A stretch of DNA of 64,000 nucleotides, taken from Roseivirga sp. (GTDB lineage: Bacteria > Bacteroidota > Bacteroidia > Cytophagales > Cyclobacteriaceae). The translations under genes and the position numbers were made by a program. Of this stretch, positions 6,119 through 60,942 are shown piece after piece. Each line of letters starts with the position of its first letter. The first letter of the stretch is position 1. Where the stretch lies: NCBI RefSeq assembly GCF_034669765.1, contig NZ_JAXMOQ010000007.1, positions 75,595-139,594 on the forward strand, in the 5' to 3' direction. The notes beneath the pieces are model-generated. The model worked only from the letters and a program-made list of their open reading frames with translations, was not told the origin of the DNA and did no database searches.

Positions 6119-7794
6119 AAGGTGTAAGCCAAGTTGATGTCTAAATTAAAGTTATCTCGATCTTTCCCTGGATAGTAAGGAAATGGAGAAGCATTAGGGT
6201 CAAATATAACTTCCCACTGATAGTTCAGTGACTTAGTGTAGAATAAGGAACCTCTTAGTAATAGTTTGTCAAATTGCCATTCAACAAAACCATGTAGGTT
6301 ATAATCCACCCAATACCTTGTGAAATCACCCGAGAAAGTGAAAGTAGCAAAGTCGTTATTATGAACATATCTTTCAACGGCTCCGCCAATCCGCTTTAAA
6401 CCTTTTACCCACGAAACTTCGAGATATTGTGCATTACCCCCTGGGCCCAAGGCTGAGCCAAGCACCTCTCCATTATTCGTATACCCATCTCGAACAACAC
6501 CATGGATATACCAGGATAGAGCATTTCTAAAAAACCTGCTCTCCGTTTGTGACATTTGCGTTAATTCAAAATTGAATTGGTAAAATTCATCTTTCTTGGA
6601 TGTTGGAAATAGCTTATTGAAGCCTATGGTTAGGGCTCTTGAGTGATCGGAGTCAACTAATAAATCTCTTAAGTTGATGGCAGCATCATTCTTTCCAAAT
6701 TCAAAATATACTTCGGCTTTAGAATCAAACCAGACCCATCGTCCAAAAAGGCTTGCCGCCTCATCTTGTCGTAATTCAGATCCAAATTCGTTAGGGTCTT
6801 TTCCCCTAAATATGCCAGAAACCGCAGGAAAATAGTCTTTTCCTGCTTTGGCATTTGCGTAATACTGCTGAACCCATCTTGTCACTCCAAATGAAAGCCC
6901 TTGAATCCATTTTGGGGAATAAGAGAAACTTATTGCCTGAAAATAACGCCAATCATTCGGTTTTGGGGCAAACTGTACTTGTCCGCTAAATAGGGAGTCA
7001 ACATAGGGAGGGTTAAATCCAGACGCTTTAAGTTGGCCTGTCAATATTTGTCCTTCGAATGAGCCAATGATAGTTTTAATTGGTCGCTGAGTGTTAAAGG
7101 TTATGTGCGGAAATCCCTGAGCATTATTGCTCATCATTAAGCTATTACGTATGGCTGGCCCCCACCAAATATTTTCAGTGGATAGACCCAAAGATAAACC
7201 CCATTGATTTAGCCGTATACTTGACTGGCCAAGTGTGGCTTGTGTATAATTACCATCTCCATAGCGTTCAGGTTCATCTATCCGATTAAAAAACACATAC
7301 CTAGATTGCCATGTACTCTCAAAATGGCGAGGCTTAAATGGGAAGCCCTGATATCTATTATTTTCTGCAAATATTAATTCTGGTTTCAACTGAATTGTAA
7401 GCGGACCCCACTCCGAATATATTCCCGCACTTAAATAGGTTTGAAAACCTCTTGAGCGAATCATTGCTCCGTCATTTCTGCTATCAGGATGATCGCTATC
7501 ATAGGCTAGCCTGAAATCTAGGGGTAAAACTTTTAATTTGCCCTTGTTACCATCAAAACTAGTGATGGTTTTAAAGTAGTTATTGGTATCAAATACTAAG
7601 GAGTCGACCTTAAGACCGTTCTTTCCAAAGACTAATGGTCGATAATTAAATGAAAATGAAGAATCAAGATTCCCAAGTAGCTGCTGTCTTCTTAAATAAT
7701 CTTGGACAACCGCTGATCCTAAAGGGATCGTTTGGGCAAATAGATGGCTGCCAAAAAGTAAGAAAGTATAGATTAACAATATTATTTTTTTCAT
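6115..7794 (-). CDS. Capsule assembly Wzi family outer-membrane protein (paralog 1)
   Basis: Signal peptide; [10 protein letters not shown]...LMMSNNA.GFPH; GEVLGS; C-terminal aromatic residue. Confidence 0.8.
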
Positions 7795-50191: not shown

Positions 50192-50263
50192 GGTCCCGTA
50201 GTTCAACGGATAGAATAGAAGTTTCCTAAACTTTAGATACAAGTTCGATTCTTGTCGGGATCA
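50192..50263 (+). tRNA. tRNA-Arg (anticodon CCT)
   Basis: Acceptor GGTCCCG/CGGGATC; D arm; anticodon arm GAAGT-TTCCTAA-ACTTT; GTTCGATTC T loop; CCA not encoded. Confidence 0.95.
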
Positions 50264-50296
50264 CACTTAACACTAACTAACAAGTGTAAACAAGAG

Positions 50297-50325: not shown

Positions 50326-50376
50326 GGTGTTAAGGCATGTTAGTTCTCTTGTCCTATCTTGTTAATTCCCGTAAAT

Positions 50377-50398
50377 TGTTATCCAAAATGTTATACAA
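50377..50398 (+). repeat. Tandem direct repeat, candidate integrase arm-type sites
   Basis: TGTTATCCAA-AA-TGTTATACAA immediately before the int ATG. Confidence 0.5.
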
Positions 50399-50400
50399 CT

Positions 50401-51588
50401 ATGGGAGTTTCATTCAAGCCGATTTTCAACCGAAACAAAACTAAAACCAAGAGCAATCTCTACACTATTCACCTACGGGTGACAATCGATAGGGAGATCC
50501 GGTTCTTTAATCCCAACCTTCCCAAACTAGAAAGTAAATATTGGCAAGGGAGAGAAAACAAATGGGTGAAGGATAGCCATCCGCAAAACCATTTGTTTAA
50601 CAAAGCGCTTATGGACCGAATGCAAGAACTCCAAGAGTACGTAAACAAGCTGTACTTTCTCGATCGTCCAGTAACTTTCCGGCAGCTGTCCGAATTTTTT
50701 GAAAGAAAGGGAGACAAGGAATCTTTCAATGATTATATAGATCACTATTTGAAGATCATCAAGTTTAAATCACCGAACACCCGTAAGAAGTACAATACCT
50801 TCAAGAAGCATATCAAAGAGTTCAATCCAAAAATCAAGTTTAAAGAGTTGGGGGAAGGTCTCATTTTAGAGTACCGGGACTTTCTTTTAAATAAAGGACT
50901 GGTGGGCTCAACCGTAACCAAGTACTTTGATCCATTTAAGAAGATTGCCAGGCATGCTCTTAAAAACGATTATTTAATTCGTGATCCATTTTTTGAGGTC
51001 AAGCTGGAGGTGCCAGTTTCAGTGGTGAAAAGAACAGCTCTTACCATATCAGAAATTGAAGCATTGGTAAACCTTAAGTTCGAGAAAAAGGAAGAACAAT
51101 ATTTAGAGCTGCACCGAGACCTGTTTGTCTTTCAGTGTTTAACTGGGCTATACTATAGTGATGTACGTGGCTTAACGGCCGAGAATTTTATCAATTCTGA
51201 AGCTGGGCTATTACTGGTAAGTGAAAGGTTTAAAAATGGCTACCGCTATATTGTGCCTTTGTACAAGTTTCCAGAAGCAATCAGGCTTTTGAATAAGTAC
51301 AAAGCTGAAGATTCTCCCTTGGTATTTCCAACAGTTGTAGACCAGGCATTTAACAGAGCACTCAAAATAATTGGCCCAATGGCCAAAATAGAAAAGGTGC
51401 TTTATAACAAGGTTGGTCGCCATACATTTTGTGAACTGTTAATATCAAAGGGCTATCCAAGGGAATACGTGGCCAAAATGGCTGGCCACCAAAATTCAAA
51501 AACGACAAAGACTTATTTTGATATAAGCACAAGCCACTTTATTAATGAGCTGAATGGGTTTGGAGCAGTTGAGTTTAAAACTGAATAA
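50401..51588 (+). CDS. int: Tyrosine recombinase/integrase (arm-binding + SAM-like + catalytic domains)
   Basis: N-terminal IHLRVTIDRE arm domain; FQCLTGLYYSD, KVGRHTF, MAGH...TT..Y; ATG 50401 preferred. Confidence 0.92.
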   Translation: MGVSFKPIFNRNKTKTKSNLYTIHLRVTIDREIRFFNPNLPKLESKYWQGRENKWVKDSHPQNHLFNKALMDRMQELQEYVNKLYFLDRPVTFRQLSEFFERKGDKESFNDYIDHYLKIIKFKSPNTRKKYNTFKKHIKEFNPKIKFKELGEGLILEYRDFLLNKGLVGSTVTKYFDPFKKIARHALKNDYLIRDPFFEVKLEVPVSVVKRTALTISEIEALVNLKFEKKEEQYLELHRDLFVFQCLTGLYYSDVRGLTAENFINSEAGLLLVSERFKNGYRYIVPLYKFPEAIRLLNKYKAEDSPLVFPTVVDQAFNRALKIIGPMAKIEKVLYNKVGRHTFCELLISKGYPREYVAKMAGHQNSKTTKTYFDISTSHFINELNGFGAVEFKTE

Positions 51589-53249: not shown

Positions 53250-54656
53250 ATGTCCATTGAACCGAAACATGAAAGTCTTGAAACAGCTACTCTATTAGTT
53301 GAGGAAATAGAGAATCATAAGGGTGAATTAGCCAAGGTTGAGACACCACTCTTTCCTGCGCACATTTATAAAATACTTCCAAAATTTCTGAGAGAAACAT
53401 GTGCCTTTTTTGATCAAGGTAGAGATAAGGATGTATTTCTTGCGAGTACACTTACCGTATTAAGCGGCTGTATGCCTGGAGTAAAATTTCAACACGATGG
53501 GAAGACGTACTGGAATAACCTTTTCTTATTCATAATCGCTCCAGCAGCCAGCGGTAAAGGAAAAATGAATTATGGTAAATTTCTAGCCCAACCTATTCAA
53601 AGAAGATACATAAAGGAAAATGACCTGAAAAAAGAGGATTATCAATCACAGCTTTCTCTATATCGAGCAACTCCAGCTAAAGATAGACTATATTCGGCTG
53701 AACCATTAGAACCAGAATACCAATACTTATTCATTCCAGCGAATAGTAGTAGTGCCTCTTTTGTCGAGACTATGGCACGCATGCAAAGTTCCATTCTTTT
53801 TGAGTCTGAAGCCGATACATTAGGCAATACGCTAAAGCAAGATTGGTCTGGGTATAGTGATGTGTTGAGAAAGGCTTTTGAGCATGAAACACATTCTCAA
53901 AACCGAAAGGGACCGGGTAATTATAAAGAAATTGAAGACCCTTGCCTTTCGGTAGCATTGAGCGGTACACCTGGGCAGTTAAGGGGGATTATCCCAAACT
54001 CTGAAGATGGTTTATTCAGTCGGTTTATGTTCTATTACTTCGATGGGGATGAAGAGTTTAGGAACGTCTTTGGCAGTAAATCAAAACCAATACCCTATAG
54101 TGATCAATTAGAGCCTTATTCAAAGGAATTATTACAGATTTATGAAAAGTGCGAAAAATGGGGTGAGGTACGTTTTTCGTGGAAACCAGATCAGGAGAAT
54201 CAATTACAGGACTTATACGAGAAATTGACTAAGTATTATGTCCGATCGTTTGGCTCAGATGTCAAGAGTATCATATTCAGATCAGCAATAATTATTACCC
54301 GAATAGCCTCAATACTAACCGTTCTGCGCACTTGGGAGCGTCAAGACTATTCTAACAACCAACAAGTATGTTCAGGAAAGGACTTTGATATTGCTGTAGC
54401 GTTAGCAGAAACATTCATTGAGCATTCAATGAAAATGCATTCTCATCTTTTGAAAAGAGACCCAACGGATGTATTTCCTCTTAAGAAAAAACAATTCTTT
54501 TTAGCCCTTCCTGATTCTTTTGAAACCAACGAGGCTGAAAGAATAGGCGATGAGCACAGTATCAAGGACAGAACAGTTCGAAAATATTTAAGAGACTGGG
54601 ATATTAATGGACTGCTAGTAAAACTTGATCAAGGAAAATATGAAAAGGCAACATAA
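53250..54656 (+). CDS. DUF3987 P-loop helicase-like replication protein with C-terminal winged helix
   Basis: NLFLFIIAPAASGKG (Walker A), FESEADTL (Walker B), LSVALSGTPGQ, DGLFSRF. Confidence 0.85.
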   Translation: MSIEPKHESLETATLLVEEIENHKGELAKVETPLFPAHIYKILPKFLRETCAFFDQGRDKDVFLASTLTVLSGCMPGVKFQHDGKTYWNNLFLFIIAPAASGKGKMNYGKFLAQPIQRRYIKENDLKKEDYQSQLSLYRATPAKDRLYSAEPLEPEYQYLFIPANSSSASFVETMARMQSSILFESEADTLGNTLKQDWSGYSDVLRKAFEHETHSQNRKGPGNYKEIEDPCLSVALSGTPGQLRGIIPNSEDGLFSRFMFYYFDGDEEFRNVFGSKSKPIPYSDQLEPYSKELLQIYEKCEKWGEVRFSWKPDQENQLQDLYEKLTKYYVRSFGSDVKSIIFRSAIIITRIASILTVLRTWERQDYSNNQQVCSGKDFDIAVALAETFIEHSMKMHSHLLKRDPTDVFPLKKKQFFLALPDSFETNEAERIGDEHSIKDRTVRKYLRDWDINGLLVKLDQGKYEKAT

Positions 54657-54775
54657 CGTGCCGTGTGCCTTTTGTGCCGTTCATACCGCAATTGTGATAA
54701 AACGGCACGAAAGGCATGGACGGCATCTTTAAAATTTAGAAAAAGGCATAAAAGGCACGAATGGCACACGGCACG
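54647..54775. repeat. Iteron-like GGCA repeat cluster with inverted arms (candidate origin)
   Basis: CGTGCCGTGTGCC (54657-54669) / GGCACACGGCACG (54763-54775); GTGCCGTT/AACGGCAC; about 11 GGCA/TGCC units. Confidence 0.8.
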
Positions 54776-54780
54776 ATAAA

Positions 54781-55824
54781 ATGAAATTTATAAATCCATC
54801 ATATCAACTTGAACCAGGAAGTAAGAAGCACATTTGCCCCAGCCCTAGCTGTGGTAAAAAGCGCTTTGTCCGATATGTAGAAAAAGCAACTGGAGACTAT
54901 CTGCCTGAGCAGTACGGCCGCTGTGATCGTGAAGCTAATTGTGGTTACCATCTCAACCCATACAAAGACGGTTATGTAATTAAAGATCAAGACCTTCAGG
55001 GCGGAAAGGTTAATGTAGGTATGGGTAAATCAACCCCCGTTCTCCCGTTCGCGAAGGCGTTCGTTCCTTTTTCTGTGCTTCAGCTAACGCTATTAGCAAA
55101 CGGATATAAACGCAACATATTCATCCAAAACCTTCTGAAAAACATTCCTTTCCCCTTCTCTGAGAAGGATGTGGAGAAAGTAATAGAGCTTTATTACCTC
55201 GGTACATTAAACAAAGGCTATCTGTCGGGTGCACTTACAATTCCCTACATAGATCGTTCGGGGAACGTTCGGGCTGTTCAGGTAAAAACCTTTGATGAAC
55301 AGAACCACACTATTAAAACAAACTTCCTGCATTCCATTGCTGAAAAGCATTACCTAAAACAGGGACATGAAATGCCAAAATGGCTAAAGGATTACTTAAA
55401 GAACGAATCAAAGGTATCATGCCTGTTCGGTGAACATTTACTAGATAAGTATCCGGATAATCCGATAGCACTTGTAGAGGCTCCTAAAACGGCAATCTAC
55501 TCAACGCTGTACTTTGGGTTACCTGATCAACCCGATAACTTTCTTTGGTTGGCAGTTTTTAACCTCAGCAGCTTAAAGCTGGAGAAGTGCAAAGTACTGA
55601 AAGGGCGTAGGATAATACTCTTTCCGGATCTATCTAAAACGGGCAATGCCTTCAAATTGTGGAGTAACAAGGCTGTAGAATTTGAAAAAGAAATGCCAGG
55701 TACCACGTTCACCGTTTCAGATTTGCTTGAACGCAATGCGAACGATCAAGAACGAGAAGCAGGTTTAGATTTAGCTGATTATTTGATAAAGCTAGACTGG
55801 AGAGCGTTCAAAATGGACAAATAA
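54781..55824 (+). CDS. DUF6371 protein with N-terminal Zn ribbon and Toprim-like domain (primase-like)
   Basis: CPSPSCGKKRF...GRCDREANCGYH; CLFGEHLL, IALVEAPKTA, LFPDL, DLADY motifs. Confidence 0.8.
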   Translation: MKFINPSYQLEPGSKKHICPSPSCGKKRFVRYVEKATGDYLPEQYGRCDREANCGYHLNPYKDGYVIKDQDLQGGKVNVGMGKSTPVLPFAKAFVPFSVLQLTLLANGYKRNIFIQNLLKNIPFPFSEKDVEKVIELYYLGTLNKGYLSGALTIPYIDRSGNVRAVQVKTFDEQNHTIKTNFLHSIAEKHYLKQGHEMPKWLKDYLKNESKVSCLFGEHLLDKYPDNPIALVEAPKTAIYSTLYFGLPDQPDNFLWLAVFNLSSLKLEKCKVLKGRRIILFPDLSKTGNAFKLWSNKAVEFEKEMPGTTFTVSDLLERNANDQEREAGLDLADYLIKLDWRAFKMDK

Positions 55825-55859: not shown

Positions 55860-55990
55860 TTACGCCATTCCGTTTTTAACACATAGTCAAGCCGTTTTAT
55901 CACGTTTGTGCCGTTTGCGAACGGCACAATAGGCCATTACAAGGCGTTGCAAGCGCCAATGGTGGCCGTTTCAGCCGTTTGAAAACGGCA
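55860..55990. repeat. Second palindrome-rich cluster
   Basis: TTGTGCCGTT-TGCG-AACGGCACAA (55906-55929); GCCGTTT-GA-AAACGGC (55974-55989); several GCCGTT. Confidence 0.75.
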
Positions 55991-56090
55991 GTTACCTCAC
56001 ATGGCGTATTGTAATTTGATTTGTCTTTTAGGTACATAATAATCCTACTGATGACAGTTTTATAGTACTTTAATACACGTTATGGAGCAT

Positions 56091-57065
56091 TCACTTATTT
56101 CTAATCATCAAACCGATAGTCCAAATTGGTTTTTGATCTTTCATGAATATTGTTGAGGCTCTAAACCCTAAAGGTAGGCCAGGAATTGGAACTGTAATAC
56201 CCATGTTTGCACCTGATAATTTTCTCTTACGCTCCCCAGTCAATTGTTCATAAAGCCCCTCATTAAATCCTGTTTGAAATAGCCCAATAAATAATTGGAC
56301 AGGCTTCTTAGCTTGGCTGTCATTATTCAAAGAGAGTCCCTCAAATTCAATTCCCGCATTGAATATTGATTGGCTAAAGTTCAATTGTTCATCATTTGTG
56401 CCTTCATTTAAACTCATATACTTGAAGCCCACATTGGCATATGTGTATAATTGGTAAGCATCATTGGCTAAGGTTCCCTTCTTAATTATATATGTTGGGG
56501 TAAGTGCAATACTCACTCCTCTTGATCCCTGAACCAAAGCATTTATATTTTTTTCAGTGTCTACTGAGATTTCAGAAGCAATATTCGATATGTTGCCTGT
56601 GAGATATAAAATGAACTTGTCTGATATAATATTGAAATCACCAATTTGAATCGGTGCAGAACCGACAAAATTTTCAATATTACCATCTCCGACAAAATTA
56701 TATGAGGCTTCTGCTCCATACCAAAAACTTACGGGAGAACTACCGCTTGCAGTAACTACTACTTCTTCTCCAATGTCATCTGCATCTAATGGTGTAAGAC
56801 TAACTGTCAAAAAATCCGAATTTATTTCAACATATTGAGTACTAAACCCTATGTAGGTAAATTTGAGTGTGTTAAATCCTTCAGGAATTGTAATACTGAA
56901 CTTACCATCAATATCAGTAGAAGTTTCTGATTGAGTGCCTGGAACTAATACTGAGACACCAGGTAAAGGACTACCTGGCTCAATTTGAACAATGCCATTA
57001 ACAATTTTTTGAGCAAATATTAGGTTTGATAAACACAGCATTAAAAGTATGATAATGTATTTCAT
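56091..57065 (-). CDS. Exported protein: SusC-type N-terminal carboxypeptidase-regulatory-like domain fused to a short beta-rich domain
   Basis: Signal peptide; PLPGVSVLV.GT...TSTDIDGKFSI...L.F.YIGF; EEVVVT; only 324 aa. Confidence 0.75.
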   Translation of the reverse strand: MKYIIILLMLCLSNLIFAQKIVNGIVQIEPGSPLPGVSVLVPGTQSETSTDIDGKFSITIPEGFNTLKFTYIGFSTQYVEINSDFLTVSLTPLDADDIGEEVVVTASGSSPVSFWYGAEASYNFVGDGNIENFVGSAPIQIGDFNIISDKFILYLTGNISNIASEISVDTEKNINALVQGSRGVSIALTPTYIIKKGTLANDAYQLYTYANVGFKYMSLNEGTNDEQLNFSQSIFNAGIEFEGLSLNNDSQAKKPVQLFIGLFQTGFNEGLYEQLTGERKRKLSGANMGITVPIPGLPLGFRASTIFMKDQKPIWTIGLMIRNK

Positions 57066-57229
57066 GATAAAGATGGTTTAGTGAAATCAGTGAATACTAC
57101 AAGTACATATGACAGTAATGTAATAATAATAGTGTGGTATTTGGCTATTATTATTTAATAATGTTCCGTTGTGAGAGTTTTAATCGGTTAACCATAGTTT
57201 ACTTAGAAACTTTAAGCGATTTGGATTAA

Positions 57230-57329
57230 GCCGTTGCAGGTATTTTAGCCGTTTGGAAACTGCAGCTTTGGGGCGTTCGTTAGGCGTTCGCGAACGCCAT
57301 GGTCAAGTCGTTCGGGACGTTCGCAAACG
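57230..57329. repeat. Third palindrome-rich cluster
   Basis: GGCGTTCGCGAACGCC perfect 16-mer (57283-57298); CGTTCG x4; CGTTCGCAAACG (57318-57329). Confidence 0.75.
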
Positions 57330-57646
57330 GGGTTTAATCAAAATAATTTGAGTCACAGGGATTTCTTTGTAGAATCGCTTATGTCATTAGATGTTACAGG
57401 TTCACACCAGACTACGTTTGAAATGAACGACTCAGTCTGAACGGATTGGGTTAAGTATCGCCAGAAATGGAATAACGTTTTAATGTTTATTGTTTTTGAC
57501 CCAATTGACGGCCATTATCCATTCTACCTGAATGATGTGAAGGATCGGAAAGAACTGTATGAGGCCTACGAGTCCTATCTACCACAACCCAAGGAAACCA
57601 TACTAGAAGAGAGGGACGTAAAGTCAAATACCAGGATAAACTAAGG

Positions 57647-58066
57647 CTATTCTGGCTTGTGATGACCTTTGCTCAGGTACTTGAATATTTTCTCCTTCCT
57701 ATATTTATCAGCCCAAAACCGATCTACTAAGCCAGGGAAGCATTTGAATATTTTTTCAAACTGCTCTCCAGATCTACTGGTGAAAATATGAGATGTACCT
57801 TTGTCACTGGTTGCCTTTACAATTATCTCAATTTTTTCGAATTTGGGATGATAGGAGTTGGAGAGGTTAAATTCTACATGAATATCTTCTAAAAAGGCAT
57901 TATGATCATCCTTATCAATCAACTGCTTAGCGCTATGATCTGTCTGAAACCACCAGCCCTGTTTCGTTTTCCAGATTTTAAGAAAATGGTGGATGGATTC
58001 TAGCCCATGTCTTCTTAACTGCACAATATATTTACCCGCTTCAACCTTCATAGAACAAAGTAACAA
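57647..58066 (-). CDS. Hypothetical protein (likely start MKVEAG at 58051)
   Basis: Open frame co-oriented downstream of SRAP; no motif recognised. Confidence 0.55.
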   Translation of the reverse strand: MLLCSMKVEAGKYIVQLRRHGLESIHHFLKIWKTKQGWWFQTDHSAKQLIDKDDHNAFLEDIHVEFNLSNSYHPKFEKIEIIVKATSDKGTSHIFTSRSGEQFEKIFKCFPGLVDRFWADKYRKEKIFKYLSKGHHKPE

Positions 58067-58122: not shown

Positions 58123-58959
58123 TCAGAATAAACTGCCTTGTTCAAATGATTGAGCATAATGTTTCCACCCTCCTTTTAACGCCTCGTATTCCATTGGTTC
58201 TAACACTTCTGGAATGTTGGCATTCGCGGTTTTAGCCTTTAATCCTTGTCGTACAGGGACGGCCTTCATGCCATCACTTGGGAAAGGTTTAGCAAATTTC
58301 ATTAGTCCTTCAAGCGTTTGGCTTTCCTCTAACCAGTTACTCCACTCTTGGGGCAATAGAATTACAGGCATTCGAGAGCCGCTATGTGCATTAGGGTTAT
58401 TATGAATCACTGACATTAGCTCATTTGGCTTAGTAGTAAGTATGCTAAATGAATTGATGATTTCACCAGTATCAGTGTCGTTCCAACTGTCCCATAGGCC
58501 AGCAAATGCAAACATTGGGTGGTCTTGGAGACTAATCAAATGAGGATAGGTTTGCTTGTTATTCCTATGGTGATAGAACTCGAAAAAGCCAGTCGCTAAA
58601 ACTAAACACCTTCTTGTTTTGTAAAGCCTCTTCCATGTTGGTTTTTCAGCCATTGTTTCCATCATTGCATTGGCAGTTTTGGAATAGTAATTACCAAAGT
58701 CCCAAGGGTGCAAATGCCTCCCATCCTTTTCTATATACTTGGCAAATGGTGGTATCAGACCCCAATGGAAAAACTGTATCTCTGAAGGCTTATCTTGAGT
58801 GATTACAGGCATAGAAGGGTGCCAATCCTTGTAGGCATCCATGAAGTAAAATTGATTGCCAAAATCTAGGAGCTTTTGAATTTCGTTACCGGTTAACTTC
58901 TGGTAAAACTTATTGACCTCCATTTCCTCTTTGTAGGACATCGAATAGCTATAGCACAT
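58123..58959 (-). CDS. SOS response-associated peptidase (SRAP/HMCES/YedK family)
   Basis: N-terminal Met-Cys, WGLIPPF, RCLVLATGFFEF, FAFAGLWDSW, SFSILT, IH...RMPVIL. Confidence 0.92.
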   Translation of the reverse strand: MCYSYSMSYKEEMEVNKFYQKLTGNEIQKLLDFGNQFYFMDAYKDWHPSMPVITQDKPSEIQFFHWGLIPPFAKYIEKDGRHLHPWDFGNYYSKTANAMMETMAEKPTWKRLYKTRRCLVLATGFFEFYHHRNNKQTYPHLISLQDHPMFAFAGLWDSWNDTDTGEIINSFSILTTKPNELMSVIHNNPNAHSGSRMPVILLPQEWSNWLEESQTLEGLMKFAKPFPSDGMKAVPVRQGLKAKTANANIPEVLEPMEYEALKGGWKHYAQSFEQGSLF

Positions 58960-59072
58960 ATATCATTATTTAGCCCTTCCTGGCTTAAAAGTATACAACC
59001 AATCATAAGCATTGGCTAATAGTACTTTATTAAAAGTAGATAATAAAGGAGATAATGGAAAAAGCTTCATGG

Positions 59073-59256
59073 CCGTTTAAACGCGTTGACACCCCGTTGA
59101 TGGTGCGTTTAAACGCATTGACTCTCCGTTTAAACGCATTGACACCCCGTTGATGGTGCGTTTAAACGCATTGACAGTGCCGTTGATGGTGCGTTTAAAC
59201 GTGTGGAAAGTGCCGTTTATCTTACTATGGCAGGCTTTCATGGCGTTTGCAAACGC
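59073..59256. repeat. Tandem array with five CGTTTAAACG palindromes and a terminal GCGTTTGCAAACGC
   Basis: Copies at 59074, 59106, 59127, 59159, 59192; CGTTGATGGTG x3; (C/G)(A/G)TTGAC linkers. Confidence 0.92.
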
Positions 59257-59352
59257 AATTCTTAATCTTAAAATTGCATGAGACAAGATTGAAGAGAAAT
59301 ATCCTATTACCTCCCTGAGGTATGAGTATTCATAAGAAAGAATTAGGAACAA

Positions 59353-59380
59353 GAAAGGCTATTGTCTCCAGTAGCCTTTC
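59353..59380 (-). terminator. Terminator downstream of hsdM
   Basis: GAAAGGCTAT-N8-GTAGCCTTTC stem. Confidence 0.6.
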
Positions 59381-59412: not shown

Positions 59413-60942
59413 TTAATCTTCTGAGCCATTAATTGTGAGCATAATCTCCCTGAAGCTATTCAGACCAGATTCAATGTTTTCGATGATTTCATTCGCTAAA
59501 ACGTCCGGATCAGGTAAGTTGTCTAAGTCAGTTAGACTTTTGTCTTTGAGCCAAAATATATCTAAACTGGTTTTATCTCTTGATACGATTTCTTCATACG
59601 TGAATTTACGCCATCTACCATCTTCATTTTCAGCATCCCATGTTTCCAATCTCTTATTCCGGTTTTCTGACTTATATAGCTCAATAAAGTCTTCCAAATG
59701 CTGAATGGTCATCGGTGACTTCTTCGGGGTATGATGCACATTGGTTCTGTAATCGTAAAACCAAACTTCCTTGGTCCAGGCTTCTTTACTCGCAGGCTTA
59801 TTGGTAAAGAACAATACATTAGCTTTTACTCCCGGTGCGTAGAATATACCAGTAGGTAGGCGTAGAATTGTATGAAGCTCAGTTGTCTTCAGCAATTGCT
59901 TTCGAACCTCTTCACCAGCACCTCCTTCAAATAGGACGTTATCAGGCAAAACAACTGCAGCTTCTCCATTAATCCTTAGCATAGTTTTAATATGCTGCAA
60001 GAAGTTCAATTGTTTGTTTGAAGTTGTTTCCCAAAAGTCCTGACGGTTGTAGCTCATGTCTTGCTTTTCGGCTTCACCTTCTTCATTGGTGATGGTCATG
60101 CTACTCTTCTTCCCAAAAGGAGGATTGGCCAGCACATAGTCTACTCTAAAACCATCATCAGAAATCAATGCATCGGTAGACTTAATCGGAGTATCGCCAA
60201 TGATATCTCCAATATTATGGAGATACATATTCATTAAACACATTCTACGGGTATTGTCTACAATCTCATTGCCATAGAAGGTTTTATTCTTCAAGAACTC
60301 CTTTTCTTCTCTATCCAGCGAATTGTTTGCAATCACCCAATCATAAGCTGCCAAGAAGAAACCACCTGTACCACAAGCTGGATCTGCAATAGTTTTGAGT
60401 GGCTTTGGTTGAACACAGGCAACAATGGCTTTGATCAATGCTCTTGGTGTAAAGTATTGTCCTGCTCCAGAACTGCCGCTACTATCCATAGCGTTCTTTT
60501 CTAACAGCCCTTCATAGATGGTTCCTTTAATGTCGGCACCCATCATATTCCAATTCTCTTTATCAATCAAGTCGATGACTTTTAAGAGTTTGGAAGGGTC
60601 TTGAATTTTGTTCTGACTCTTGGTGAAAATCTGACCTAACATTCCTTTTTCAGTAGATAAACTACGGAGCAATTGGCTATAAAATGATTCCAGCTCAGCA
60701 CCTCTTTTGCCAGAAAGTGTTTCCCAATCACAGATTTCGCCATCAGGAATTTCATTGCCATCGACATCTTTCAGTTTGGGGAAAACAAGGCCTTTGCTGT
60801 ATGGCGGCTTATTGAGCTCGTCTGCCATTTTAAGGAACAGCAAATAGGTGATTTGCTCCAAGTAATCGCCATAGCCCACCCCATCATCACGCAATACGCC
60901 AGCGAGGTTCCAAATTTTTGAAATTATTGTAGAGTCTGTCAT
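59413..60942 (-). CDS. hsdM: Type I restriction-modification methyltransferase subunit M
   Basis: GAGQYFTPR, DPACGTGGF, NPPF, VLPDNVLF, LRLPTGIFY motifs. Confidence 0.96.
   Translation of the reverse strand: MTDSTIISKIWNLAGVLRDDGVGYGDYLEQITYLLFLKMADELNKPPYSKGLVFPKLKDVDGNEIPDGEICDWETLSGKRGAELESFYSQLLRSLSTEKGMLGQIFTKSQNKIQDPSKLLKVIDLIDKENWNMMGADIKGTIYEGLLEKNAMDSSGSSGAGQYFTPRALIKAIVACVQPKPLKTIADPACGTGGFFLAAYDWVIANNSLDREEKEFLKNKTFYGNEIVDNTRRMCLMNMYLHNIGDIIGDTPIKSTDALISDDGFRVDYVLANPPFGKKSSMTITNEEGEAEKQDMSYNRQDFWETTSNKQLNFLQHIKTMLRINGEAAVVLPDNVLFEGGAGEEVRKQLLKTTELHTILRLPTGIFYAPGVKANVLFFTNKPASKEAWTKEVWFYDYRTNVHHTPKKSPMTIQHLEDFIELYKSENRNKRLETWDAENEDGRWRKFTYEEIVSRDKTSLDIFWLKDKSLTDLDNLPDPDVLANEIIENIESGLNSFREIMLTINGSED

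Follow-up and report, generated by a model that had tools for sequence, protein, structure and literature searches.

A short intergenic gap between a type I restriction-modification operon and a SRAP gene, at positions 59073-59256 of the window (the whole 64-kb stretch of DNA that was analyzed), is filled with copies of one small palindrome, which raises the question of what kind of sequence this is and what it may do. The sequence-only reading of this locus had proposed a same-face platform for loading protein, such as a centromere-like site, a second origin, a packaging signal, or a titration array. The host genome is that of a Cytophagia-like Bacteroidota (4.02 Mb, 38% GC) and was assembled from a plastic-surface metagenome.

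Anatomy and origin of the array

Exact matching recovered the 10-bp palindrome CGTTTAAACG five times within 59074..59201, with starts at 59074, 59106, 59127, 59159, and 59192. The spacings of 32, 21, 32, and 33 bp, as well as the linkers that begin with CGTT or CATT, were therefore as first described. Two of the palindromes extend to the 14-bp palindrome TGCGTTTAAACGCA. A sixth match in the 64-kb window has one mismatch, and there are no further ones. In dinucleotide-preserving shuffles of the window 1.6 matches are expected, and at least six were found in 0 of 100 shuffles.

The linkers between the palindromes are repeats themselves. When the sequence is read in units, it forms a tandem array of 13 co-oriented hexamers, C(G/A)TT(T/G)A (59073..59225), all on the plus strand and in steps of 10-12 bp. 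Every unit starts with this hexamer; unit A is CGTTTAAACG, unit B is CRTTGAC followed by 4-5 variable nucleotides, and unit C is CGTTGATGGTG, and their order along the array is A B C A B A B C A B C A B' A'. The phase of the hexamers gave a Rayleigh statistic of 0.94 at a period of 10.7-10.8 bp, which was reached by 0 of 20000 random placements. Tandem repetition of a subunit of about 10.7 bp yields such phasing automatically, so the phasing is not independent evidence of function. The single-stranded DNA fold of the array had a z-score of -3.7.

Clustered regularly interspaced repeats of the CRISPR type are 24-48 bp long, have unique spacers of similar length, and are usually accompanied by cas genes. 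In this case the units are 10-12 bp, the apparent spacers are repeated, and cas genes are absent, and we agree with the earlier view that the array is not a CRISPR. A coding repeat was also rejected because the 32-bp spacings destroy any reading frame. The overlapping open reading frames (32 aa on the plus strand with an ATG at 59055, read by eye, and 91 aa on the minus strand) had no family match, and no known RNA family was detected at E <= 1 within 55.5-59.7 kb.

TRF identified periods of 53 bp (1.9 copies, 98%), 33 bp (2.8 copies, 88%), and 21 bp. The 53-bp unit occupies 59073..59178 on the plus strand in two copies that are 98% identical (one base differs), and it coincides with a double-depth unitig. 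The 53-bp and 33-bp units show that the growth of the array took two or more successive tandem duplications, an older one of a unit of about 33 bp and a very recent one of the 53-bp unit. The right end (59177..59260, plus strand) is unamplified and contains a 12-bp palindrome, CGTTTGCAAACG, at 59244-59255. It aligns with another cluster of CGTT sites on the same island (cluster 2, at 57229-57300) and with element c of a related island, L167 (local alignment, z = 6.7 against shuffles). By this alignment the array is a paralogous copy of an element, with its left arm expanded. The 10-bp palindrome that was multiplied is presumably the 12-bp CGTTTGCAAACG minus its central GC, and it was absent from every relative examined. 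Judged by these comparisons, the array is a young tandem amplification and the third and most expanded copy of what we refer to as the CGTT element. The duplication is so recent that selection on the amplification cannot be inferred, and the amplification itself may be due to neutral slippage.

Misassembly had been raised as a possible refutation of the array and variation in repeat number as a point to check, and neither was seen in unitigs. Short-read contigs of the same organism end inside the array. In Logan unitigs from three runs, the left contig ends at 59115, a 37-mer has about twofold depth, a unique 76-mer spans 59093-59168, and the right contig begins at 59146, which matches the assembled order exactly. 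No alternative joints or array length variants were present in the unitigs of these three runs, which come from the same study and were compared at the contig level only.

The position of the array between the hsdM terminator (hairpin at 59353-59380) and the SRAP start codon (ATG at 58959) was confirmed. On the left, a spacer (58966..59072) that is 70% A+T, an A+T content ordinary for intergenic DNA of a 38% GC genome, separates the array from the SRAP start; within it are a directly repeated 12-mer (59033-59056) and, on the minus strand, weak boxes that resemble a promoter for SRAP. Scans for sigma-70 and for Bacteroidota -33/-7 promoters returned weak matches only. The SRAP gene itself (58123..58959, minus strand, product starting with MC) has the array upstream and is paired with a gene for a 134-aa protein (57647-58051). 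At 58965 there is a mosaic joint: an unrelated marine metagenome contig is 99% identical to the SRAP 5' end and has a different sequence beyond it.

A second mosaic joint lies at about 59285 on the right. From there, 59293..59380 (plus strand) holds the fossil 3' end of an FtsX-like permease gene and the shared bidirectional terminator hairpin, and this segment is 77-78% identical to the host's own FtsX-like copy and to that of a congener. The hsdM gene (59413..60942, minus strand) is the last of the type I restriction-modification operon, with its stop at 59413, and ends before the array. In another congener (G010), an intact FtsX-like permease gene is convergent to an hsdM homologue, which suggests that a chromosomal site was probably the source of the operon and that about 90 bp of the neighboring gene came along with it. 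The two joints, at 58965 and at about 59285, mark the array segment as a separate piece between the SRAP module and the captured restriction-modification module.

A search for similar arrays beside SRAP or hsdM, proposed with the first description, was negative, since SRAP homologues and an hsdM relative were without one. A tie to SRAP was rejected because homologues at about 60% identity keep the partner gene and have no array upstream, and because the 99% identical SRAP 5' end has other upstream sequence. A tie to hsdM was rejected because the intervening DNA is a fossil of a neighboring FtsX-like gene.

Two further observations concern these flanks. Every Cytophagia SRAP homologue examined (L130, L132, L133) is followed by a gene for a protein of 134-145 aa of unassigned function in otherwise unrelated neighborhoods, and the two look like a conserved two-gene module. 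A Bacteroidota-type promoter-like site is found on the plus strand at 59246-59276 (TTTG, 19 nt, TAAAATTG), with its -33 box within the 12-bp palindrome. It faces the fossil and terminator, and a predicted RNA of about 100 nt that could start from it would run antisense to the 3' region of hsdM.

Island setting and distribution of the CGTT element

The array is part of a 27-kb island with tRNA-Arg(CCT) (50192-50264) at one end and a 15-bp repeat of the tRNA 3' end at window coordinate 77310 at the other. The integrase gene (50359-51588) is of the tRNA-targeting Arm-DNA-bind_5/Phage_int_SAM_5 type. It is followed by a divergent HTH_3 repressor gene, an HTH_17 Xis-like gene, a gene for a 123-aa protein, and a replication module on the plus strand (53250..55824), which is composed of a DUF3987 helicase (53250-54656) and a Zn-ribbon/DUF6371 primase (54781-55824) in a short form of 347 aa. 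DUF3987 proteins have been shown by experiment to be 5'-3' helicases that, together with a primase-polymerase, form the replication machine of tRNA-linked elements of Flavobacteriia (PMC11724360).

Past the primase, the minus strand carries an orphan CarboxypepD_reg gene, the 134-aa gene, SRAP, and the type I restriction-modification operon with embedded nucleases, and beyond this operon there are toxin-antitoxin genes and further cargo. The CarboxypepD_reg protein, encoded between clusters 1 and 2, had no homologue at E <= 1e-30. Scans with Pfam and PHROG found no ParA, ParM, ParB, or ribbon-helix-helix adaptor among the island open reading frames, and no terminase or capsid gene among those scanned. 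Contigs with island sequence only and contigs that join island and chromosome had equal depth, about 200x, in three runs, which indicates that the island is single-copy and integrated in these samples, with no sign of replication there.

Within the restriction-modification operon, a PIN_10/DUF433 pair, a WYL-domain gene, and a gene for a 1125-aa NERD and superfamily-1 helicase protein are located between hsdS and hsdR (contig L101, 1-9171; window about 63400-72600), and genes for a GIY-YIG protein and a 486-aa protein are located between hsdS and hsdM in the same segment. A second HTH_17 (excisionase-like) gene is found by the right end of the island (L101, 12168-12497, minus strand; window about 75574-75903) and is followed by unannotated genes for proteins of 113, 189, and 303 aa. 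With this second HTH_17 gene near its right end, the island may be a composite of two elements.

Three clusters of CGTT sites were found on the island. Cluster 1 (55860..55995, plus strand) starts 40 bp past the primase stop codon and has palindromes at 55912 and 55976. Cluster 2 (57165..57335, plus strand) has palindromes at 57285 and 57318, which are 33 bp apart, and is homologous to elements of related islands. Cluster 3 is the array, in the third intergenic gap. When the 4.02-Mb genome was scanned in 150-bp windows, six or more [GC]CGTT[TCG] sites were reached in these three clusters and nowhere else. The genome has 28 CGTT-N4-AACG and 29 CGTT-N2-AACG sites, five of each kind within the 3.4-kb cluster stretch, and no copy of the element was found outside the island in the genome. 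Solo half-sites, meaning those outside palindromes, are oriented 16:0 in favor of the plus strand, the one on which the replication genes are encoded. Dispersed palindromes of the REP/BIME kind were rejected, as the motif is confined to three gaps of one island.

Related islands were found by way of closer primase relatives, with integrases 91-94% identical in two of them (L167 and L168) and primases 77-86% identical. The closest is on a Tara scaffold with the same chromosomal flank (L167/L185), where the integrase is 94%, the helicase 81%, and the primase 86% identical; here the three gaps around a gene for a 235-aa protein, an NYN gene, and AbiH are full of CGTT-N4-AACG palindromes that have solo CGTTCG sites beside them. 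The distal cargo of this island (Qat, AbiE) has no CGTT palindromes. L168 (integrase 92%, primase 79% identical) has the CGTT pattern seen in L167, and a D5_N/DUF5906 helicase replaces DUF3987. In L165 the primase is 77% identical and of the same short form as in this genome, and CCGTT-rich tandem repeats occur after the primase and again after a PLD-nuclease cargo gene; the first cluster begins 40 bp past the primase stop codon, as it does here. A distant island, L188, has a DUF3987 gene, the same palindromes 33 bp apart, and a gene for a 236-aa protein that is about 36% identical to the 235-aa protein of L167. An 863-bp contig (L187) encodes a 60% homologue of the 235-aa protein along with CGTT clusters.

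The elements of the related islands are in the first intergenic gaps after the replication and core genes, and none were found further along the cargo. Cluster 2 has 72-76% identity over 82 bp to elements of L167 and L168, and 87% over 38 bp to another copy in L168. Across the islands there are nine different palindrome centers, and the outer CGTT/AACG bases are invariant. Palindrome spacings are near whole helical turns (21-23, 31-33, and 42-43 bp). Solo half-sites are oriented 9:2 in L167 and 1:7 in L188, which is inverted. From these comparisons, we describe the CGTT element as a non-coding element of 12-bp CGTT-N4-AACG palindromes and solo CGTT half-sites, the solo ones facing as the replication genes do. 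It is a conserved and previously undescribed element that belongs to one lineage of Bacteroidota islands integrated at tRNA-Arg(CCT). The gene order of this lineage is integrase, Xis-like HTH_17, DUF3987 helicase, and DUF6371 primase, with defense cargo behind them.

Searches outside this group had little yield. Islands with primases of 46-61% identity had no CGTT clusters in the 14-16 kb downstream, and in 400 genomes of the family the palindrome pattern occurred only at the chance level given by reversed controls. A primase search of JGI metagenome contigs returned no close relative. Further copies of the array itself were absent from its own genome, from 40 relatives, and, by blastn, from plasmids and phages; its amplified part had no BLAST match, and the pattern of A and B units had none in metagenome or viral contigs. 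The longer motif GCGTTYGCRAACGCCATG gave chance-like single matches in coding DNA of viral contigs, with no phage family that carries it, and a full-text literature search for the palindrome returned cloning primers only. Pairs of CGTTTAAACG were found at 89 loci in 185,579 species genomes, but these have other linkers and were rejected as relatives of the array. Examples are a 32-bp repeat with CGTTTAAACG in a Saprospiraceae MAG (L014, 3697-3860) and a 12-copy complex array with CGTTTAAACG in a Lewinellaceae MAG (L052, 1363-1700).

A third example is a family of dispersed intergenic repeats in the Bacteroidota MAG G438 (L019, L020, L024, L026, L063), which has TTAATCCGTT-type units of 10-12 bp around CGTTTAAACG. 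These are long imperfect dyads at eight or more loci, and CGTTTAAACG has 31 copies in that genome compared to 17 for a control. The family may be MITE- or REP-like, with the CCGTT motif in common.

Several observations were made on the relatives themselves. The tandem repeats of L165 are CCGTT-rich units of 229-232 bp with 11-bp AATCACCNNTG sub-repeats (2183-2984, 3.5 copies; 6576-7174, 2.6 copies), and they bracket a PLDc_2 cargo gene in direct orientation. In L185, either side of the attR core has a copy of an AbiEi/AbiEii pair that includes roughly 100 bp from upstream of the pair (590-700 and 2555-2655), a duplication that suggests tandem accretion of island remnants. Four paralogous proteins of 71-81 aa with an HTH-like core are encoded past the primase in L167 (7452-7676, 7680-7925, 9177-9392, and 9488-9715), with equivalents in L168. 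These candidate DNA-binding proteins are without a homologue in the genome studied here. The family of the 235-aa protein, seen in L167 (9928-10635, minus strand), L168 (11346-12053, minus strand), L187, and L188 (3001-3711), has 908 representatives at E <= 0.001 and invariant residues H25-D26, W31, E118, D138, E183-x-K185, R196-Q197, and Y201. An AlphaFold model of it reached pLDDT 93 and pTM 0.85, and a fold search against PDB returned nothing significant, the best match being MspJI at E = 0.15.

Possible roles of the element

The CGTT element is probably a protein-docking site. Its outer bases are invariant while its centers are free, its palindromes keep helical-turn spacing, its strand polarity flips in the inverted island, and it is restricted to one lineage. 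These features together suggest a multi-site docking platform for a putative sequence-specific DNA-binding protein of the island lineage. Through the amplification, one face of the DNA came to carry 13 hexamers and five identical palindromes. The platform for loading protein on one face, as first proposed in general terms, fits the phased co-oriented half-sites, the conserved outer bases, the helical spacing in relatives, and the occurrence in one lineage; the specific roles named with it are hypothetical.

The most likely role of such a platform would be an iteron-like one, in which the sites act as an origin, priming signals, or copy-control sites for the helicase-primase module. We favor, tentatively and with less than even confidence, an iteron-like same-face platform that would work with the module of DUF3987 helicase and DUF6371 primase. 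This role fits best because the sites come directly after the replication genes, have direct-repeat polarity, and appear to co-vary with the primase lineage. The absence of clusters with primases of 46-61% identity is what co-evolution of the sites with their initiator would predict. In an iteron-like platform, duplication would simply add binding sites.

Several points count against the iteron-like role. In L168 the element is kept although the helicase is D5_N/DUF5906, which makes the helicase an unlikely source of the specificity. No DnaA box (at most one mismatch) was found near any cluster, the sole match in 55.8-59.4 kb being intragenic at 56442, and the island showed no copy-number excess in three runs. 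The same two results, the lack of a DnaA box near the array and an island depth equal to that of the chromosome, also weigh on the second origin of the earlier proposal. Three or four clusters over 2-3.5 kb amid cargo genes are unusual for an origin. The 10-bp palindromes of the array and the conserved 12-bp palindromes differ in half-site geometry, so one and the same dimer may be unable to bind both. The candidate partners of the relatives (the 71-81-aa HTH-like paralogues and the nuclease-like 235-aa gene) are absent here.

A different reading, which we consider rather unlikely, is that the clusters are arrays of operators or upstream sites for an island transcription factor, either the Xis/AlpA-like HTH_17 protein or, in the relatives, the small HTH-like paralogues, and that they switch the proximal cargo. 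In that case the array would supply the operon of SRAP and the 134-aa gene with a reinforced set of upstream operators. Dimeric HTH operators typically have conserved outer bases and free centers, as these palindromes do. Clusters 2 and 3 are located 100-300 bp upstream of minus-strand transcription units, in L167 and L168 the 235-aa gene has one palindrome 10-45 bp ahead of its start, and the HTH_17 protein is kept at 72-79% identity in element-bearing islands. However, cluster 1 and element a of L167 are at convergent 3' ends and not at promoters, and the strict one-strand polarity of the solo half-sites is unexpected for simple operators. The SRAP homologues mentioned above, with other DNA upstream from 58965 or without an array, also argue against it. 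Furthermore, the attachment-site arms, where an Xis would bind, have ATGTYAYCC repeats and no CGTT, a finding that also led us to reject the CGTT sites as integrase arm or Xis sites.

The array could also be an orphan relic, its partner lost from the island and its five palindromes a neutral, unstable slippage expansion without present function, which we regard as no more probable than the operators. The single base difference between the 53-bp copies, the 10-bp palindrome variant seen in no relative, the position of the array between two recombination joints, and the lack of an array copy in any collection searched are all consistent with a relic. So is the absence from this genome of homologues of the genes that accompany the element in L167, L168, and L188 (encoding proteins of 235 aa, 74 aa and HTH-like, 220 aa, and 129 aa). 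An unstable expansion is at odds with the lack of length variants in the unitigs of the three runs, which are of the same study and at contig level only. In addition, L165 has the same short-primase architecture and has both kept and amplified CGTT-rich repeats, which makes a loss of function in two lineages less likely, and the clusters here retain intact palindromes and polarity.

Less likely again is a recognition or recombination role at cargo boundaries, where the putative PD-(D/E)xK-like 235-aa protein would bind or cut the clusters, or where they would serve as flanks for homologous exchange in cassette-like gene swaps. Homologous clusters do enclose different genes, CarboxypepD_reg in this island and the gene of the 235-aa protein in L167 and L168. 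Homologues of that protein at 99%, 60%, and about 36% identity all occur with CGTT clusters, which flank the gene or occupy its upstream gap in all four contexts seen. The family has invariant E, D, ExK, and Q residues, the array is exactly between two mosaic joints, and the cargo of L165 is bracketed by direct CGTT-rich repeats. Against this, the nuclease fold is only putative (a pLDDT 93 model whose best PDB match, MspJI, is at E = 0.15), the composition and copy number of the clusters are too variable for a defined recombination site, there are no attC-like R/L boxes and no integron-type integrase, and the distal cargo boundaries are without the element. A stronger version, which we hold to be very improbable, is that of integron-like, nuclease-based gene capture, with the 235-aa protein recognizing or cutting CGTT-N4-AACG and promoting cargo exchange. 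The array here would then be a hypertrophied boundary site that was left once the nuclease gene had been swapped out.

We give a similarly slight chance to a centromere-like partition site, a packaging (pac/cos) signal, or a decoy that titrates a phage or host regulator. Sites such as parC, sopC, and pac typically consist of short repeats or palindromes arrayed on one face of the DNA, and in a phage contig (L159) three palindromes of a similar kind stand at 38-bp distances ahead of an HNH gene, but the island open reading frames include no ParA, ParM, ParB, ribbon-helix-helix adaptor, or terminase, the matches of GCGTTYGCRAACGCCATG in viral contigs are chance-like and coding, three dispersed clusters argue against a single pac site, and a titration array had no gene-level support. 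In the IMG/VR contig L159 (39% GC), the palindromes are GGCGTTTGCAACGCC, GACGTTTGCAAACGC, and GCCGTTTGCAAACGCC (1900-2000). Genes for an exonuclease and a Sak4-like annealing protein are downstream of them and of the HNH gene's gap, and the likeness to the island element is at the motif level only.

Comparison with known systems and significance

The iteron-like platform that we favor has its nearest counterpart in the ori and crr sites of satellite phage P4, which consist of 8-bp TGTTCACC iterons bound by the C-terminal domain of the fused alpha primase-helicase. Both systems are integrative and satellite-like, encode an integrase and a primase/helicase module, and have lineage-specific sites and separate clusters of short direct and inverted repeats. 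The motif here differs in being CGTT-based, helicase and primase are separate genes, and the binder and the replication are putative. Origins of SaPI/PICI elements have iterons immediately 3' of the rep gene, and the order of integrase, divergent repressor, Xis/AlpA, pri-rep, and repeats is the same here, with cluster 1 right past the primase stop. The SaPI origin, in contrast, is compact, with two sets of iterons around an AT-rich core, whereas the three clusters described here are spread amid cargo over 3.4 kb. Direct repeats in helical register, which an iteron origin should have, are present in this case (13 hexamers at 10.7-10.8 bp; solo half-sites 16:0).

Other systems resemble the element in part. 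The plasmid centromere parC of R1 is built of 11-bp iterons, and sopC of F consists of 43-bp units, each with an inverted repeat. These share with the array tandem short repeats or palindromes in helical register that come from amplification, but the island has no partition ATPase or adaptor gene and is single-copy and integrated in the runs examined. The single-strand priming signals ssiA and ssiB of RSF1010 are recognized by the RepB' primase; they have hairpin-capable short palindromes, strand polarity, and a primase-encoding element in common with the CGTT sites. This is a resemblance only, and the island has far more than two sites.

Integron attC sites are single imperfect dyads with R''/L''-L'/R' boxes after each cassette and depend on an IntI-type integrase. 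They were rejected as a model, as the clusters have several short palindromes in variable number and the integrase is of the tRNA-targeting type and not IntI. REP/BIME sequences and the G438 family are also short GC-rich palindromes in intergenic DNA, and the G438 units contain CCGTTTAAACG and CCGTTGAT. REP sequences, however, are dispersed genome-wide, unlike the motif here with its three gaps in one island, and the G438 repeats are long imperfect dyads and not a one-way array.

In marine Bacteroidota, defense genes are commonly carried by integrative islands that encode a DUF3987 helicase and a primase. As far as could be found in the literature searched, the cis-acting DNA of such islands, including origins, control sites, and cargo boundaries, has not been described. 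The CGTT element has now been located with exact coordinates in at least five islands and tends to amplify, and it could reveal how such islands replicate or exchange cargo.
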